This document shows, piece by piece, positions 21,339-61,595 of a stretch of DNA of 64,000 nt. The stretch's first letter is position 1; every line of letters starts with the position of its first letter. The DNA comes from Escherichia phage vB_EcoM_EC001. Below the pieces are notes generated by a model. The model worked only from the letters and a program-made list of their open reading frames with translations, ran no database searches and was not told the DNA's origin. Both the position numbers and the translations under genes were made by a program. The stretch lies in the sequence record MN445185.1; one strand, 5' to 3'.

Positions 21339-22457
21339 ATGGCAGAAAAAACATTTGAGACATCGCTCGTCTCCTTTCTTTCTAAGTTTCCCATGCTGCT
21401 TCGCCAGCGGGCGGAATCGACGGAAGAATTCAACTCTGTGCTGTACAACGAGCACACCACGCTGGTTGAACAAAGTCTGTTGGGCTTAGATTACCTGCCA
21501 GGTATTCTGGAGAAAATCCAAATCCTGCTCGCGGGCAACCAACTTACCGCCATCTCAATTCTGGTAGGTGTTCCTGAGGTTGATATCCTTGGTACGCTTG
21601 ACCAGGTTAGCACCCGTCGTAATGCCCTCGATGCGGCTGCACGTTCGGGTTCTCGCTTAGCGTCTTTCGCAATCGGCGAGTCCTCCCGTCACACGCTGCC
21701 GTCATACGATAAAATCGGGCTTGCGGTCGGTGAATCCCGTCGCCAGAAATCCGATAACAAAGTAGCGACTGAATCATCCGCAGGTTCTGTGCTGCCGAAC
21801 AACACGCTGAAGCTCCTGCACGATCAGGAAGGTCTGTCCAACGGTAAAGTGTTCTCTGTTACCTTCGAACGCGACGGTAATAAAGTCGAGCTGCCGATGC
21901 GTCTGCGTCTTGATGTGAAGTCTCTGCCAACCGATGAAATGAAGACGCTGATTGCGTTCAGCGATCAAACCAAAACCTTCTGGGAACGTGTGCTGCGGGC
22001 GAAGGTCGGTTCTCTCAGCTACGCGAAAGATATCGCGCTGTGTAATGACCTCATTGAAGAATACCGTAAGAACCGCTTCCGTGATAAGTCCGGTTATTAC
22101 CGTAAGATGATGGAAAAGAAAAACGCCAACTGGCTGTCTGGCCTGCTGACGCTGAGCCCATCCATCAACAACGCGTCTTCGGTTATGGTGGTTTCTCAAG
22201 AAACTATCGACGATCTGACTGCTCAGCTGGGCGGAGACTTCGATGATTACAATATCCGCCAGCGTGTGTTCAAAGACACCCTGACTGTTTACTACGTGGT
22301 TGTCGACCAGACCTGGAACCGTGTAACCATTTATACGCGTGGTCAGACCGGGTCTCAGGAACTCGACAAATCAGACTTTAGCAAGGCGAAGTCCGGTAGC
22401 GGCGATGTAAACAAAATCATCGATGCCTATCGCGTCGGCGCGAATCCGGTACTGTAA
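21339..22457 (+). CDS. hypothetical protein (372 aa)
   Basis: Long ORF diverging from the minus operon with only 22 bp between start codons. Confidence 0.7.
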   Translation: MAEKTFETSLVSFLSKFPMLLRQRAESTEEFNSVLYNEHTTLVEQSLLGLDYLPGILEKIQILLAGNQLTAISILVGVPEVDILGTLDQVSTRRNALDAAARSGSRLASFAIGESSRHTLPSYDKIGLAVGESRRQKSDNKVATESSAGSVLPNNTLKLLHDQEGLSNGKVFSVTFERDGNKVELPMRLRLDVKSLPTDEMKTLIAFSDQTKTFWERVLRAKVGSLSYAKDIALCNDLIEEYRKNRFRDKSGYYRKMMEKKNANWLSGLLTLSPSINNASSVMVVSQETIDDLTAQLGGDFDDYNIRQRVFKDTLTVYYVVVDQTWNRVTIYTRGQTGSQELDKSDFSKAKSGSGDVNKIIDAYRVGANPVL

Positions 22458-53625: not shown

Positions 53626-54505
53626 CACCAAAGTTTACGACGGTAAACTGTCAACAGTGACTCTTAACGCGATGCGACTTACGACCGCGCTATTGACAGG
53701 TGCTGACGTGCAGTACCCACAGAAATCCACGATGAATGAGTTTTATAAACTCATGACCGCGAAGGTTCCCGATGGCGCTACACGTCCGCATTTAGGATAC
53801 ATGTGCGTGGGTAACCGTGGTCACATCGTTGATCAGTCTGATGTTGTGGCAGACGTTGTTCCCGTCGCGAAATCCCCGATTGCGTCAGGGATGTTCTCGC
53901 GCGTTCCATTGGTACTGCGTACGTTGGATAATGACTTGTCTGATGAGCAACGTAAACAGTACGCTTTCCGTACTCGTGAAACTATCGGCGCGCGGGATTA
54001 CTGGGCGTATTATCTGAAACGTATCGACATGCGCGCAGTGAAGACCACTGACCTGGATATCACTCGCGAAAACGGTGTTGAAACCGTCAAAGATTTCGTC
54101 TATACCGATGCGGAACTGAACCCGGTACCGAAAGAACTCCCAGACTACGATTACGACGATGACGGCACTGTAGAGATCCCCGACGGTCGTTATGTTGAAT
54201 CGGGCGCAGACCTGGTGATTCCATGGACTGAGTTTGATGTTCAGGAATACATGAACGTGACGGCGATTCTACGTGGTACGCCACGCAGTTCGATTATCTC
54301 TGAAATTGCGCTGTGCTCTGGCGTTGATACCCCTGAAACGGGTGAGTCGGCTACCGGTTCACAGTTCAGCTACGACGAAGCTATCGGTGTGCAGGCGTTG
54401 TACTACATCTCCCTGTTCACTAACCTGGCACAGACCAACGATCGTCTGTCACTGACCATCCGTATCGGCCAGCCGGCACCGTGGTTCTTAGGGACAGCTA
54501 ACTGA
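53618..54505 (+). CDS. hypothetical protein (295 aa)
   Basis: AGGAGAA SD; overlaps upstream gene end. Confidence 0.7.
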   Translation: MANTKVYDGKLSTVTLNAMRLTTALLTGADVQYPQKSTMNEFYKLMTAKVPDGATRPHLGYMCVGNRGHIVDQSDVVADVVPVAKSPIASGMFSRVPLVLRTLDNDLSDEQRKQYAFRTRETIGARDYWAYYLKRIDMRAVKTTDLDITRENGVETVKDFVYTDAELNPVPKELPDYDYDDDGTVEIPDGRYVESGADLVIPWTEFDVQEYMNVTAILRGTPRSSIISEIALCSGVDTPETGESATGSQFSYDEAIGVQALYYISLFTNLAQTNDRLSLTIRIGQPAPWFLGTAN

Positions 54506-55155
54506 TGCTGATTCCTGAGCCGAGGTTACCCGACAGTATGGTGAGGATTGCGGCTGTTGACCCCGGTACTGCCCATCTTGGGATGGCGGTTATCGACTGG
54601 GAATTTGGCCAACCTCAAGGTGAAGTTGTCTGGGCGGGCACGGCTCATGTTGCGGACCCTACGCACAATGGCTCTTTTGGTGAGTGCGTAGGGAAACGCG
54701 ATGCGCGTTTGGTAGAATTAGAAGAACGCTTTCGTGAGTTTTTAAAACTGGCAAGGCCGACTTTTGTCGCTACCGAAACTCCGTTCATGCGAAGAGCTAA
54801 GCTCTCAGCGTACGAGTCTGGGGTGGAGTTGCAACTGATGTTGCGGCGAACGCTTTGGGACGTGTTTCCCGAAAAATATCTCCATGGGTTTAATCCTATT
54901 ATTGTGAAGTCGTACGTTGGTGTGGAAGCAAAGGGTACAGATAAATCGCATATGCAGCAAGCGGTTACCAAGCTCTACGCTAACCATACCCGGTGCGACT
55001 TATCGGTATTGGATGAACACAGTATCGATGCCGTGGCGGTGGGTAATATCTTCGTCAGGGTCAACTTATTAAACCTAAATAGTCTCCTTCCGCCCAAGGT
55101 TAAAGTTCCTAAAGCTAAGGCTGGTAAGCGGAAAGGAAGACGCCGGAGGAAATAG
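54505..55155 (+). CDS. RuvC-like Holliday junction resolvase (216 aa)
   Basis: N-terminal VRIAAVDPGTAHLGMAV resembles the RuvC catalytic strand; C-terminal DEHSIDAVAVG resembles the RuvC acidic helix; basic tail; alternative start 54538. Confidence 0.6.
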   Translation: MLIPEPRLPDSMVRIAAVDPGTAHLGMAVIDWEFGQPQGEVVWAGTAHVADPTHNGSFGECVGKRDARLVELEERFREFLKLARPTFVATETPFMRRAKLSAYESGVELQLMLRRTLWDVFPEKYLHGFNPIIVKSYVGVEAKGTDKSHMQQAVTKLYANHTRCDLSVLDEHSIDAVAVGNIFVRVNLLNLNSLLPPKVKVPKAKAGKRKGRRRRK

Positions 55156-55827: not shown

Positions 55828-56466
55828 ATGCAATTACAATTTCGTCAACGGTCTGTACTACTACCGTTTAGCGCTATATTAGGTTCGTTTACCAAAATGC
55901 TGTCTGTGGATTTTACTGCAGCTGAGAAAGAAGCGCTGTTATTGGCGGCAGTCGAAGAAGTATTGTGGGAGGCATTTTACGTAGTGCCGTTTCGTAGCTG
56001 CTTAAACGCCCCGTATGTTGAAGGGCAGTTTGTCAGCGCGCTTTCCGCCGCGATTACCAAACGTAAACTAAATGCCATGGCGCATGTCAAAGAGATCACC
56101 GCGCAACGAGGACGGATATTCGCTGCCGTCAGAAATGTGTTAATTAAAGAAGGGTTTCTTGCAGATGCGTTAGGTCCCGAAGTTCCTTGGGAACCAGGCC
56201 ATCCGCCGCGTCAGTTTGACCACGGGTACAAGTTAAATATAATTATGCCACGCGGTAAGCGTGACGTCTCATTGGGGAAATGGTTACAGATAAGTTGGGT
56301 TCGTCCTACTATCGATTGGCAAGAAATGTCGGTCAATCGCTATCTGGAACACCTGGCAAAAACACCGGCACAGTTTCACCGTTCAACAATCCTGCCGCTA
56401 CACATGCTGTTAAAACCGTCCCTGTCATTGGCAGAAGCCAGATACCTGCTTAGTGGAGAGAAGTGA
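55828..56466 (+). CDS. hypothetical protein (212 aa)
   Basis: AAAGGAA SD. Confidence 0.65.
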   Translation: MQLQFRQRSVLLPFSAILGSFTKMLSVDFTAAEKEALLLAAVEEVLWEAFYVVPFRSCLNAPYVEGQFVSALSAAITKRKLNAMAHVKEITAQRGRIFAAVRNVLIKEGFLADALGPEVPWEPGHPPRQFDHGYKLNIIMPRGKRDVSLGKWLQISWVRPTIDWQEMSVNRYLEHLAKTPAQFHRSTILPLHMLLKPSLSLAEARYLLSGEK

Positions 56467-56948
56467 TGCTTGTTATTAATGTGGTCGAGGATAAGATTCC
56501 CGCGAATGTTTATCCTGAACTGGTTGAATGGGTGCGCGACTTAAACAGTATCCGCGAGGAGCCTATTAAACTCACGATGTTTGTTGAGGATGATATCGTG
56601 CGTGGAATCATGGCATGGGAACCTGGCCATTTGGTCTATATGGTAGTGCCCGAAGAATCGCGGCGGGGCGGTGTCGGCAGATTTATGCTTAAGTATCTTC
56701 AGCAGAACTCCGATCGTAAACACATCAGCTGTCGTGTTCACCCGACCAACATTCCCGCGCTAGGATTCTTTCACCAACAAGGCTTCCAGATTGACCGATG
56801 GTATATTGCTGCTGACGGCCAACGGTATTTTCGTATGACGAACTACAATGTTATTTCGTCACACACGCCACCGGAGGAAAAGCTTTTAACTCATTACGCT
56901 GAAAGCGTTCCCATTTTTCTCTCGATGGCAGAAGGTCATTTCGTCTAA
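56466..56948 (+). CDS. GNAT family N-acetyltransferase (160 aa)
   Basis: Motif A RRGGVGRFMLKYL and motif B NIPALGFFHQQGF; ATG overlaps upstream stop (TGATG). Confidence 0.7.
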   Translation: MLVINVVEDKIPANVYPELVEWVRDLNSIREEPIKLTMFVEDDIVRGIMAWEPGHLVYMVVPEESRRGGVGRFMLKYLQQNSDRKHISCRVHPTNIPALGFFHQQGFQIDRWYIAADGQRYFRMTNYNVISSHTPPEEKLLTHYAESVPIFLSMAEGHFV

Positions 56949-57444: not shown

Positions 57445-57834
57445 ATGATGCGTGCTGTATTAGCTGTGTTTATAATTTGCGTTACTACGTCAGTATACGC
57501 GTTTACTGTTCAGGACTTCCCGCAATACAAACCAATGTGGGAAACTGACGCACCTGTGAAATTCAGCGACAAAGATGAACCAGTCGTGTCGGTGGAGAAG
57601 GGTGAGTTTGCCGTGGTCAACTACGGACGTTCTGAACTGTGTCCAGGCGGTGGCTTTTATCTCATTAACACAAAGCGTAAGACGTACCAGCCGATAGATG
57701 CCGGTACGTGTTCGCCGAAAGTTAAAGCGACAATTGTCCCGTCAGTACGAACACATCGCAGCGTTAATACCCACCAGTTAACTTTTTGGGTAGGTAAAGA
57801 AATTTCCGCGCGGTATCCTTTGTACGATTACTAA
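57445..57834 (+). CDS. small secreted or periplasmic protein with N-terminal signal peptide (129 aa)
   Basis: MMRAVLAVFIICVTTSVYA then polar mature region. Confidence 0.6.
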   Translation: MMRAVLAVFIICVTTSVYAFTVQDFPQYKPMWETDAPVKFSDKDEPVVSVEKGEFAVVNYGRSELCPGGGFYLINTKRKTYQPIDAGTCSPKVKATIVPSVRTHRSVNTHQLTFWVGKEISARYPLYDY

Positions 57835-57842
57835 ACACAGCG

Positions 57843-57879
57843 TATAGGGGCTTCGGCCCCTATACTGTTTATTATTTTC
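57843..57879 (+). terminator. rho-independent terminator
   Basis: TATAGGGGC-TTCG-GCCCCTATA hairpin, T-rich tail interrupted. Confidence 0.6.
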
Positions 57880-57924
57880 CTGTGAAGTATTATGACCCCC
57901 TTAATCAAATACCAGGAGCGAGGC

Positions 57925-58542
57925 ATGTCTTTTGTTATTGACTTTAACCACCATCATAGTCAAACCTTGCTCGATTTAGTCAATGCTTTTAATGCTGAAA
58001 CCGTTTATACGCCCCTGACCACAGAACGTATCCGAGTGGAGAGTTATGGTCCACCGGAACCGGACGGTCGTGTAAGTGCTTTGCTGACTAATAAGAGTAA
58101 GCCAGATGACTATGTGGTTGTGCGTTACCGCAAATTGAGCTTAAATGATATAATCACGTTGAAGCCTGAACATCTCACATGGTTTGATTTGTCGAAAGGT
58201 AAACCGGCCGATTTGCGCGTATGGTCTGAACCTGCAATGGCCAGTTTTGAATCGGCGTGTGCAGAACGTGGCATCGTTGTAAGTAAGGCGTGGGAAAACC
58301 CCGCGCAATGCCACGTAGAGTACGACATCCCGACTGATCGATACGTCCTCGTCTATGAATGTGAATCATTTGTTTACGAATCGCGCACACGCATTACGCT
58401 ACCGTACCATATCGGCCAAGACTTAACCAAGACAACGTTGCCTGGTCTGGAATACGACTTGGCTGGTTTCTGGGGGCATAAGCTGTTAGAAGAAGTGACT
58501 ATCACGAAGCTTAACGGTTTTCGTTATCGTGAGTTTGTTTAA
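57925..58542 (+). CDS. hypothetical protein (205 aa)
   Basis: ATG 57925 has AGGAG 6 nt upstream; the track start 57892 has no SD. Confidence 0.65.
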   Translation: MSFVIDFNHHHSQTLLDLVNAFNAETVYTPLTTERIRVESYGPPEPDGRVSALLTNKSKPDDYVVVRYRKLSLNDIITLKPEHLTWFDLSKGKPADLRVWSEPAMASFESACAERGIVVSKAWENPAQCHVEYDIPTDRYVLVYECESFVYESRTRITLPYHIGQDLTKTTLPGLEYDLAGFWGHKLLEEVTITKLNGFRYREFV

Positions 58543-58546
58543 GACA

Positions 58547-58590
58547 CTACCCTCGCCCGTTTAGCGAGGGTAGGTATTTATTTTTTTCTT
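58547..58590 (+). terminator. rho-independent terminator
   Basis: CTACCCTCGC/GCGAGGGTAG hairpin then T-rich run. Confidence 0.75.
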
Positions 58591-58623
58591 ACGAATCGTC
58601 CACTCCGTATAGGAGGTAAGTCC

Positions 58624-59223
58624 ATGAAAAAGATTTATAAAATTGCGGTAATCGGTTCTCGGAAGACCGATGAAGATACCATGTCTGAAATGTACATGCG
58701 ATTGTTACGTGGGTTTAATGCGCTGCACGCCAAAGATTACACGATTCGTTTTTCTTCTGGCGGCTGCTGGTGTGGTCCAGACCAATTGCAATTCCGATTT
58801 GCCCGACAGTGGGCGAATACAATAGACCAAGATACCGGCAAGAAAGTGGCGTGGGATGATGAGTTCATTTGTTACCTACCCGATGAGAAAAAGCTCTGGC
58901 TCAGGAAACAGAATCCCAACGTAGAGTTCCGTGTAATCCCTCAGGATGACCGCTATCGTGAGATAGTAGGTAAGCTTCATCCCGCGCCAGAAAAGCTCCA
59001 GGAGTTCGCCTGGGCGCTTCACGGGCGTAATCTGAATATAATTATGGGCGATGATTTAGCAACGCCTGTAGACGCAGTCTATTACTCTGCGCCTTTAGAT
59101 AAACAAGGTAATCCGACCGGCGGTACTGCAATGGGCGTAAAATACGCTAAGCAGTGTGGTATTCCTTGTTACCACCATGCGCTTGAAGGACATCTGTGGC
59201 TTGAGAGCTTGTGCTTATTATGA
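58624..59223 (+). CDS. SLOG-superfamily Rossmann-fold protein (DprA/LOG-like) (199 aa)
   Basis: AGGAGG SD; IAVIGSR, SSGGCWCGPD and PTGGTAMG resemble SLOG glycine-rich loops. Confidence 0.5.
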   Translation: MKKIYKIAVIGSRKTDEDTMSEMYMRLLRGFNALHAKDYTIRFSSGGCWCGPDQLQFRFARQWANTIDQDTGKKVAWDDEFICYLPDEKKLWLRKQNPNVEFRVIPQDDRYREIVGKLHPAPEKLQEFAWALHGRNLNIIMGDDLATPVDAVYYSAPLDKQGNPTGGTAMGVKYAKQCGIPCYHHALEGHLWLESLCLL

Positions 59224-59536: not shown

Positions 59537-60670
59537 ATGTCGACGCTCGATTTAGATTTAGAAGTCCTGACTGACGACTACGATCGCCTGGTCGCACTCG
59601 AAGGTCTGGGAGTTAAGCCCGACTTCCCTGCGGTTTGCGCGATTCGTCAGCGTTGGTGCTTAACCGACGACGGTGAAGATATGTTGGTTGCTCGTGAATC
59701 GCGTGAAGCGATGGAGCGTGCTCAGTTTATGACTGATACCGACCCGCGAGCTGGTATCCATCGCGCAGCAGGGCGCATTACTGCGAAGGCTGTTAAAGGC
59801 GCTGGAAAGTTAGTGGGTGCTGGACTAGGTGCAACCGCAAAGGGTGCGGGTAAACTTTCGAAAAAGCTCGCATTACGCTTTTACGATTTCGCGGAAGCGC
59901 TAGCGAAAGAACAAGCCGACCGTTTGAAAGAAATAACTTCGAAAGCTGCTTTCATGGAACGTAAGCTCAATAAGCTTAAAACGCGAATGTCGCTGCTAGA
60001 TGAGCACAAAACACTCGCTGCAGTTGACGTTCACACTAGCAGCTGGACGTCTAAAATTTGTTTTGAAGATCGACCCGATTTTGAAGCGTGTGTTCGGTTT
60101 TCTAAACAAACAAATGCGTACGAAGGCGTCGTGCAAAAGTACACGGTTTACACACGCACTGCTCTGAAGAAAAGCAAAGCATTCGAAGGGCCGGGCTTAA
60201 AACAAATCAGCAAGTCCACAAACTGGGCAGTTAAGCGTGCCGCTGGATTGCTTGGCATCATCGATCCCTTTAAAAAGGTGGAAGCTTTTCCTGTTCCTGG
60301 AAATATCGTTGTGGTTGAGCACCATAGTGGTAAGATCAGTTGGGCAATTGCGCGTGACGGCGATTATGGTGAAACCATTAAATCGCTGGATATGCATCAG
60401 TGTGGGAAAGCAATAGAGGCTGTGGAAGCACTTATCAAATCTATTGCTGCGCGCGGAACAAAGAACCGTGTTGTAGGCTACACTGGTATCTACGAAGAAG
60501 TGGAAGCGATGAAGTCCGAGCTTAAGAACCTGGAAGGGGATGAGCTGAAAGAAGCCACTTTGCGCTACCGCAATGCAATGGCGATGGAAGACGCTTTTAC
60601 CACGGCATTGGTACGTGTGGCGGAGGGTCTAATGGAATGGACGAAGCAATCGCTGGCCGAGGTGAACTGA
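59537..60670 (+). CDS. hypothetical protein (377 aa)
   Basis: AAGGAG SD. Confidence 0.7.
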   Translation: MSTLDLDLEVLTDDYDRLVALEGLGVKPDFPAVCAIRQRWCLTDDGEDMLVARESREAMERAQFMTDTDPRAGIHRAAGRITAKAVKGAGKLVGAGLGATAKGAGKLSKKLALRFYDFAEALAKEQADRLKEITSKAAFMERKLNKLKTRMSLLDEHKTLAAVDVHTSSWTSKICFEDRPDFEACVRFSKQTNAYEGVVQKYTVYTRTALKKSKAFEGPGLKQISKSTNWAVKRAAGLLGIIDPFKKVEAFPVPGNIVVVEHHSGKISWAIARDGDYGETIKSLDMHQCGKAIEAVEALIKSIAARGTKNRVVGYTGIYEEVEAMKSELKNLEGDELKEATLRYRNAMAMEDAFTTALVRVAEGLMEWTKQSLAEVN

Positions 60671-61131
60671 TGAAGATTATTACCATAGTGGGGCCAGACA
60701 CGGCTAACGGCAGGAAATATTCCACAGATATCCTCGCGCTTTATAACGAGCTGGACAAAAGCGAAATAGAAAGCTATCGAAAAGAGACGGGTATTAATGT
60801 CCGTTTTACGCCGGCTAAATCGTTAGCCGAGCGCTTCCGGGGTCGTTTACTGGCGGTCGTGGACGACGGTGTCTTGTATGGCTTTGCGCAATACCGCACG
60901 ATGACTGAAGAGGGTGTGACGATGATGTCGGTATCCTCACTGGTCGTTAGCAGCAGCGCACGTGGTAAAGGTTACGGCACCGCGTTGATGGATGCGGTAA
61001 AGAAATCCGCAACGGAAAAAGGGTGTACAGTTGTTCACCTGTCCGTGAACGCCGGTAACGCTGCCGCGAAGTCGCTCTACGACAAAGCTGGCTTTAAGGT
61101 AGGTGCTTACCAGATGTATTGGAGGGTGTGA
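60670..61131 (+). CDS. GNAT family N-acetyltransferase, tandem paralog 1 (153 aa)
   Basis: Motif A ARGKGYGTALMDAV and motif B NAGNAAAKSLYDKAGF; TGATG coupling. Confidence 0.7.
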   Translation: MKIITIVGPDTANGRKYSTDILALYNELDKSEIESYRKETGINVRFTPAKSLAERFRGRLLAVVDDGVLYGFAQYRTMTEEGVTMMSVSSLVVSSSARGKGYGTALMDAVKKSATEKGCTVVHLSVNAGNAAAKSLYDKAGFKVGAYQMYWRV

Positions 61132-61595
61132 TGAAAATTGTTTTTGTCACCAAGCCCAACTCTCCGTATGGAAAGAAATACTACGCGGACTTGTTAGGAC
61201 TACACAACAAGTTATACGACGATCAGAAAATAAAACTTGCCGACTTAAACGGTCGTGAAGGGTTTAATCAAATCTCAAAACTGGAGGAGGTTTGGGGTGA
61301 AGGTACGCTGTGCGCTTGCGCCGTTGATGACCGTGGTGTGGCTGTTGGTTTCATCACCTTTGGCTACACCAAAAAGGGACAACGTTTCCTCTGGGTATAT
61401 AACTTTTTTGTAGATGAATCGGTTCGTTCACAAGGCGTTGGCCATGAACTGATCGAAGCCGTAGAGAACTATGGCAAATCAAAAGGCTGCGCATGGATGC
61501 AGCTTAACGTGCTCGGTAATAACGACCGTGCTATTGCGTTTTATGAACGTTTCGGATTCCGAACTGAATACCAGGATATGGTAAAGGAGCTTTAA
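61131..61595 (+). CDS. GNAT family N-acetyltransferase, tandem paralog 2 (154 aa)
   Basis: Motif A RSQGVGHELIEAV and motif B NNDRAIAFYERFGF; GGAGGG SD; N-terminus parallels paralog 1. Confidence 0.7.
   Translation: MKIVFVTKPNSPYGKKYYADLLGLHNKLYDDQKIKLADLNGREGFNQISKLEEVWGEGTLCACAVDDRGVAVGFITFGYTKKGQRFLWVYNFFVDESVRSQGVGHELIEAVENYGKSKGCAWMQLNVLGNNDRAIAFYERFGFRTEYQDMVKEL

Follow-up and report, generated by a model that had tools for sequence, protein, structure and literature searches.

A single-domain DprA-like SLOG protein of SPN3US-type jumbo phages and a candidate ligand for its conserved pocket

Bacterial DprA loads RecA, and the way in which its Rossmann domain holds single-stranded DNA (ssDNA) has been described for HpDprA, whose structure was solved with ssDNA (Wang et al., NAR 2014; PMC3950713). 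That study proposed that the DprA domain is characterized by two ssDNA-binding motifs, G-S/T/A-R (Arg52) and F/L/Y-x-x-R-N/D (Phe140, Arg143 and Asn144), set them against the LOG motif P-G-G-x-G-T-x-x-E, and reported that affinity fell 315-fold in R52E and 173-fold in R143E. The equivalent arginines are likewise required for ssDNA binding by ShosA, a DprA-like antitoxin. Here we analyse a related gene in a 64,000-nucleotide stretch of Escherichia phage vB_EcoM_EC001 (MN445185.1), hereafter the window. The coding sequence, taken from the open reading frame (ORF) listing, lies at 58624..59223 on the + strand, starts with ATG and specifies a 199-amino-acid, single-domain DprA-like SLOG protein. 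A preliminary description had placed this protein in the SLOG superfamily, as DprA/LOG-like, from its glycine-rich motifs.

A divergent DprA-branch member of a widespread phage family

In DNA, the window region shares 96–98% identity with the SPN3US-like jumbo phages (genus Seoulvirus) that infect Salmonella, E. coli and Proteus, and the protein is 97–98% identical to its orthologs in SPN3US, SEGD1, SPLA5c and Proteus phage 7. The SPN3US ortholog, SPN3US_0092, was a 'hypothetical protein' (AEP83925) in the 2011 GenBank record, and RefSeq names it 'DprA-like DNA recombination-mediator protein' (YP_009153386). PHROG 768, which carries the same name, was matched with an E value of 3.4e-47 (residues 4–189 on profile positions 3–170 of 191), and the protein is a direct member of this family, with the same length and motifs as SPN3US_0092 and Phi92_gp047. 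Given the RefSeq label and comparative papers that already mention DprA/SLOG genes in jumbo phages, the DprA-like assignment is public and is nothing new as annotation.

A search of 5.8 billion proteins returned 35 homologs at E ≤ 1e-3, and jumbo phages of Erwinia and from metagenomes supplied homologs down to 42% identity. At the same threshold, 1996 relatives emerged when 1.84 billion representatives were searched exhaustively with a profile. By tblastn, the family is present in 627 phage records, mainly of large lytic phages, whose hosts are mainly Escherichia, Pseudomonas, Acinetobacter, Salmonella, Klebsiella and Erwinia. As judged by sequence comparison, the homology and conservation of the gene are far beyond chance. 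Within PHROG 768, the SPN3US/Erwinia jumbo-phage clade forms a divergent sub-branch, distinguished by zero Pfam DprA signal, an extra variable loop (residues 65–79) and a conserved hydrophobic C terminus (W-L-x-x-L-x-L-L).

Some apparent orthologs in SPFM records (for example, SPFM9_00197 and SPFM20_00191) matched only in fragments. The translations P0026 and P0029 are scrambled, with blocks of 20 residues (one 60-nucleotide line each) in reversed order, and P0027, P0030 and P0033 likewise match in pieces, with low coverage and many short stretches. We rejected these fragmented 'homologs' (P0026–P0033) as true variants and regard them as a database artefact of block-reversed translation.

Queried alone, the protein matched nothing in NCBIfam, in PDB sequences or, even at E ≤ 10, in Pfam, and a profile built from 26 close homologs returned only noise against the PDB. 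Because the protein is too diverged for direct family assignment, we used relatives as intermediates, in the form of an alignment of 83 standalone sequences at 21–64% identity. When these 83 were scanned against Pfam one by one (E ≤ 1), PF02481 (DprA) was matched by 57, with a best E value of 3e-8; the other matches were to LDcluster4 (15), YAcAr (6) and cpYpsA (1). At 19–23 bits against a cut-off of 29.6 bits, the relatives stay below the PF02481 gathering threshold. The only PDB chains that the 83-sequence profile reached were those of DprA (3uqz, 3maj, 5mll, 4ljr and 4ljk; E about 2e-4); against SpDprA, it placed the phage GSR on G113-S114-R115 and SGG.G.D on SGLAKGID. In hhalign comparisons, the same profile matched E. 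coli Smf with an E value of 1.7e-4 and the Smf family with 84% probability (E 7.5e-6), the latter over just 52 N-terminal columns and against a shallow profile of 15 exclusively enterobacterial sequences. The close-homolog profile aligned with Smf over the full length at only 3% probability, with all motifs paired in order: GSR with GSR, SGGCW.GPD with SGLA.GID, LHPAP with SEF..P, LHGRNLNIIMG with FPRRNRIISG, and GGTAMG with SGSLVT.

The predicted structure points the same way. An AlphaFold2 model based on the 26-sequence alignment (predicted local distance difference test (pLDDT) 94; predicted template-modelling score (pTM) 0.90) shows the Rossmann fold that a SLOG assignment calls for, and this one domain occupies all 199 residues. 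It comprises strands at residues 3–11, 39–45, 80–85, 101–104, 151–155 and 182–184 and helices at 17–36, 52–64, 109–118, 127–141, 166–177 and 185–197, forming a three-layer alpha/beta Rossmannoid whose nearest structural relatives are SLOG proteins. Structural scores were highest for DprA (3maj, 12.5; 4ljk, 12.0), followed by ShosA (8zva, 11.9), YpsA (2nx2, 11.8), the molybdenum cofactor (MoCo) carrier protein (2iz5, 11.6), TM1055 (1rcu, 11.5) and a third DprA (3uqz, 11.3); several LOG structures scored about 10 and the ThsA SLOG domain (7uxs) 9.0. Foldseek likewise ranked HpDprA first and ShosA second. In a viral structure library, the top matches were phage 'DprA-like'/Phi92_gp047 proteins, with template-modelling (TM) scores of 0.6–0.74, and YspA/YAcAr/DUF2493 proteins fell in a clearly lower tier (about 0.40–0.45).

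Together with the PHROG 768 match and the conserved loops, the fold upholds the SLOG assignment and sharpens it to DprA-like; we consider it highly probable that the protein is a DprA-like SLOG domain. It represents the DprA branch in a minimal, one-domain and strongly diverged form, and its family is widespread in large lytic phages. Because it falls below the PF02481 threshold, it is filed as PHROG 768 / 'DprA-like' and not as a bona fide DprA. Compared with bacterial DprA/Smf (PF02481; 3MAJ, 3UQZ and 4LJK/4LJR), it is just 16–18% identical and lies below every Pfam threshold, and relatives of Smf carry PF17782 and PF25317 besides the Rossmann domain. The model has about six core strands, whereas a nine-stranded extended sheet is described for ShosA. 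Kinship with the YpsA and YspA-YAcAr proteins (DUF2493; PF06908 and PF10686) is less apparent: YpsA matched none of the 83 relatives and YAcAr the six given above, and although G51-P-D53 supplies the YpsA-clade motif GxD/E, this motif is common to DprA too.

The LOG-like half of the preliminary assignment did not hold. If the protein were a LOG-type nucleotide N-glycosidase (phosphoribohydrolase), it would free a base from a nucleotide, the 'cytokinin-like metabolism' option, and its GGT loop does correspond to the GG.GT of LOG. However, the LOG motif PGGxGTxxE with its glutamate is absent, the sequence reading P164-T-G-G-T-A-M-G-V-K-Y-A-K with no catalytic Glu after G166-G167-T168. A comparison with the LOG-family protein PpnN by hhalign gave 0.6% probability, and PF03641 is not among the top Pfam families of the relatives. 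The missing motif and the PpnN result led us to reject this enzyme activity, which we regard as extremely improbable. Compared with LOG/PpnN and the ThsA SLOG sensor of cyclic ADP-ribose (cADPR) as a group, the phage protein lacks the catalytic Glu, has negligible profile similarity and gave lower structural scores.

The conserved pocket and single-stranded DNA

The three motifs quoted in the preliminary description are present, IAVIGSR at residues 7–13, SSGGCWCGPD at 44–53 and PTGGTAMG at 164–171, and their glycine motifs are conserved in both the 26 close and the 83 distant relatives. In the close homologs, G11, S12, R13, S45, G46, H119, P122, L132-H-G-R-N-L137, G166, G167, T168, M170, Y174 and A175 are invariant. 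Four of these residues, R135, G166, G167 and T168, are also invariant across the distant set, in which conservation reaches at least 90% at G11, S12, R13, S45, G46, G51, D53, H119, P120, H133 and N136.

These residues fall where DprA has its own. G11-S12-R13 (58654..58662, + strand) forms the loop after strand 1, matches ssDNA-binding motif 1 of DprA (G-S/T/A-R) and aligns with G113-S114-R115 of SpDprA, as above, and with G114-S115-R116 of Smf. The segment S45-G-G-C-W-C-G51-P-D53 (58756..58782, + strand), a loop and helix start after strand 2, is the equivalent of SGLA.GID in DprA and also of the YpsA-clade motif GxD/E. L132-H-G-R135-N136 (59017..59031, + strand), in the helix at 127–141, matches DprA motif 2 (F/L/Y-x-x-R-N/D) and aligns with F208-P-R-R211-N212 of Smf. 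The loop G166-G167-T168 (59119..59127, + strand), which precedes the helix at 166–177, is equivalent to S-G-S/T in DprA. Both ssDNA-binding signatures of DprA are thus present and are invariant or near-invariant across the relatives. By contrast, H119-P-A-P122 (58978..58989, + strand) is conserved but specific to the family, canonical Smf having S-E-F-P there, and the phage L-H-G-R-N stands opposite F-P-R-R-N.

From these residues we infer, with a probability of roughly one half, that the ligand of the pocket is ssDNA, bound during phage DNA metabolism. In this proposal, the G-S-R loop, the L-x-x-R-N helix and the G-G-T loop would together grip one ssDNA nucleotide, as in the DprA domain, and the protein would probably act as a dimer. 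The ssDNA in question could come from phage replication, recombination, repair or DNA entry, and the bound protein might shield this strand or recruit other proteins there.

Genomic context, rival ligands and the recombinase question

The neighbours of homologs in several other phages suggest a link to DNA metabolism. The homolog lies between helicase/DNA-binding genes and two NAD-dependent ligase genes in the T5-like phage My1, near an ATP-dependent ligase and a superfamily 1 (SF1) helicase in PAK_P3, immediately upstream of DNA polymerase in Rhizobium phage IC12, and close to gp56 and denV in the early region of an Acinetobacter T4-like phage; in further phages, it adjoins PhoH-like or methyltransferase genes. 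Among 36 multidomain relatives scanned, the recognizable fusion partners were NADAR (4), SF1 helicase (3) and DUF7831 (2), together with Macro, AlkB-like 2-oxoglutarate–Fe(II) oxygenase, DUF4326 and helix-turn-helix domains. In the fusions with SF1 helicases, NADAR, Macro and AlkB-like domains, the DprA-like domain might serve as an ssDNA-targeting module.

AlkB and SF1 helicases work on ssDNA. NADAR has been shown to strip ADP-ribose from guanine in ssDNA, phage NADARs have been shown to counter DarTG1, and Macro domains of the DarG type act on ADP-ribosylated ssDNA. Judging by these activities, ssDNA appears to be the simplest common denominator of the fusion partners, in agreement with a DprA-type pocket.

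The same partner set was listed for 'viral SLOG domains' by Iyer, Burroughs, Anantharaman and Aravind (2022; PMC9503650), who predicted that these domains sense or cleave ADP-ribose-derived immune signals. In a 2021 paper (PMC7824862), the same group had identified the jumbo-phage gene as DprA/Smf and suggested an additional single-strand-binding role in recombination. The two predictions conflict, one describing an ssDNA binder and the other a processor of ADP-ribose signals. According to the later one, the SLOG pocket would bind a free ADP-ribose derivative, such as a cADPR isomer from a TIR-type defence, and the phage protein would act as a sensor, sponge or hydrolase, sequestering or cleaving the NAD+-derived signal and so blunting host immune signalling. 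In sequence and structure, however, the protein resembles DprA more than it does ThsA-SLOG, LOG or YAcAr, the YspA/YAcAr proteins falling well below the phage DprA-like proteins in the TM scores given above. NADAR and Macro have since been found to act on ADP-ribosylated ssDNA, so the fusions need no small-molecule ligand; the ligase, helicase and polymerase neighbourhoods are ill-suited to a pure signalling role; and an acidic catalytic residue is absent after the GGT loop. We regard a free ADP-ribose ligand as the main rival to ssDNA, although a less likely one. SPN3US also encodes a standalone Macro-domain protein (NC_027402.1 174459–174959; 28460–28960 of locus L015), outside the window and unlinked to the DprA-like gene, which bears on the ADP-ribose reading of the family.

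Several further points weigh against ssDNA as the ligand. The conserved pocket is the ancestral nucleotide pocket of SLOG proteins, and its motifs fit a free nucleotide equally well. The net charge is about neutral (pI 7.6), a value that does not discriminate, the Rossmann domain of Smf having a pI of 6.8. The protein lacks the accessory domains typical of DprA, an N-terminal SAM and a C-terminal winged-helix DML1, although these are not universal. The conserved H119 and H133 are family-specific and have no counterpart in Smf, which has E/F and P there. In Pseudomonas phage VCM, the homolog adjoins NAMPT and Macro genes, an NAD/ADP-ribose context, and the SPN3US-type neighbourhood of hypothetical genes, GNATs and an internal head protein is silent on DNA metabolism. 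We found no biochemical study of the short phage homologs in the literature searched. Finally, annotation, phmmer and a Walker-A scan revealed no RecA/UvsX-like ORF in the SPN3US-type genome.

This last result bears on what an ssDNA-bound protein might do. Over roughly 210 kb of the RefSeq record of SPN3US, the annotation names no RecA or UvsX, and the remaining stretch, 50–81 kb, was covered by the ORF scans of the window. With E. coli RecA as the phmmer query against all ORFs of at least 150 amino acids, the window ORF 21339..22457 gave a weak match (E 0.04); having no Walker A motif, it was rejected as a RecA. In the Walker-A scan, an SbcC/SMC-like ATPase was the only plausible NTPase and the sole ORF with an N-terminal Walker A. 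The SPN3US-type genome has SbcD-like, SMC/SbcC-like and RuvC-like genes, and it may encode a deviant recombinase; a review describes jumbo myoviruses as widely carrying RecA homologs. Because these searches revealed no RecA/UvsX gene, a strict RecA-mediator role for the phage protein is doubtful unless host RecA is used, and the protein more likely protects ssDNA or recruits other factors.

RecA enters a further alternative as well, in which the protein is an orphan antitoxin mimic that replaces ShosA/PsyrA and neutralizes abortive infection of the ShosTA/PsyrTA type. There is an analogy in the orphan NADAR antitoxins that T4-like phages carry against DarTG1. The ShosA/PsyrA antitoxins (8ZVA), however, have an N-terminal SAM and a phosphoribosyltransferase (PRTase) toxin partner and are RecA-dependent, whereas the phage gene is an orphan, with unrelated phage genes and not a PRTase toxin as neighbours. 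The window protein has no PADLOC matches, and its relatives match PADLOC only in the shared N-terminal GSR...SGG.G.D, and do so no better than they match DprA. Moreover, ShosA requires a dimer, ssDNA binding and direct interaction with RecA and does not bind the toxin, and a family in 627 phage records is too widespread for one defence system. An antitoxin mimic is therefore improbable.

It is also conceivable, if speculative and on balance unlikely, that the short phage DprA-like proteins, the one studied here among them, are not recombination mediators but a counter-defence module that recognizes ssDNA lesions or ssDNA ends. The pocket may flip out a base on single-stranded phage DNA, possibly one that is ADP-ribosylated or otherwise modified, and His119 and His133 may aid recognition or even catalysis. 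The protein may then counter DarT-type defences and others that target DNA, either by shielding DNA as it enters or replicates or by recruiting enzymes for its repair. If true, this would explain the recurrent NADAR, Macro, AlkB-like and helicase fusions, as well as the position of the domain at the C-terminal tip of proteins of 4,000–5,000 amino acids in the putative cargo block of crAss-like phages.

These giant proteins came to light among the 150 best representatives, nine of which are 4,067–5,206 amino acids long and match the DprA-like profile (P0069, P0098, P0100, P0107, P0112, P0119, P0142, P0143 and P0161). The match lies at the extreme C terminus in eight of the nine and is internal in P0119. 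In the two that were scanned, P0069 and P0098, a full PHROG-768 domain is the sole recognizable domain, with no Pfam match. P0069 comes from a contig of a crAss-like phage, on which the muzzle gene lies four genes upstream, and two further giants are flanked by more giant ORFs that lack Pfam matches; three of the loci are L019 (8001–20441), L020 (2899–15789) and L021 (2862–16283). crAss-like phages carry a block of ejected cargo and virion RNA polymerase proteins, and by analogy the giant proteins tipped with a DprA-like domain are possibly part of it. We found no description of giant proteins with a DprA-like C terminus in the literature searched.

Setting of the gene and significance of the family

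The DprA-like gene is preceded by a ribosome-binding site, AGGAGG (58611..58616, + strand), 7 nucleotides before the ATG and read from the sequence. Further upstream, an intrinsic terminator with a 10-bp stem, seven GC pairs and a T-rich tail (58547..58573, + strand) closes the preceding gene. Downstream on the + strand follow a 90-amino-acid ORF and the genes for an internal head protein of 377 amino acids (PHROG 2497) and for a GNAT acetyltransferase, and we found no + strand terminator-like site between the DprA-like gene and these next three genes. Because of the terminator upstream and the lack of one before the next three genes, the DprA-like gene probably starts a new transcription unit and heads a small operon.

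Other features of this region stand out. The gene at 57892–58542 is bracketed by two strong GC-rich hairpin terminators, the one just described and another at 57842–57865, a perfect palindrome that is scored as a terminator on each strand. Upstream of the DprA-like gene, at a distance of 3.5 kb, is the gene for a 216-amino-acid RuvC-like Holliday-junction resolvase (54505–55155, + strand; PHROG 159, E 2e-38), labelled just 'hypothetical protein' in RefSeq SPN3US. No more than 5 kb from the DprA-like gene are three ORFs for GNAT-type acetyltransferases (56463–56948, 60637–61131 and 61119–61595, + strand), two of them adjacent with a 13-nucleotide overlap, and further GNATs are annotated elsewhere in SPN3US. 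A 129-amino-acid ORF at 57445–57834 (+ strand; PHROG 5248) has a hydrophobic, signal-peptide-like start, MMRAVLAVFIICVTTSVYA, and its product is possibly an exported phage protein.

The family to which the protein belongs is found in more than 600 sequenced phages and is invisible to Pfam, and its label has run ahead of knowledge, which is the reason it deserves some attention. Because the partners NADAR and Macro repair ADP-ribosylated ssDNA, the identity of the ligand would show whether large phages share a common module for protecting ssDNA or targeting repair to it. SPN3US is genetically tractable and could, for this reason, be a practical system in which to settle the question of the ligand.
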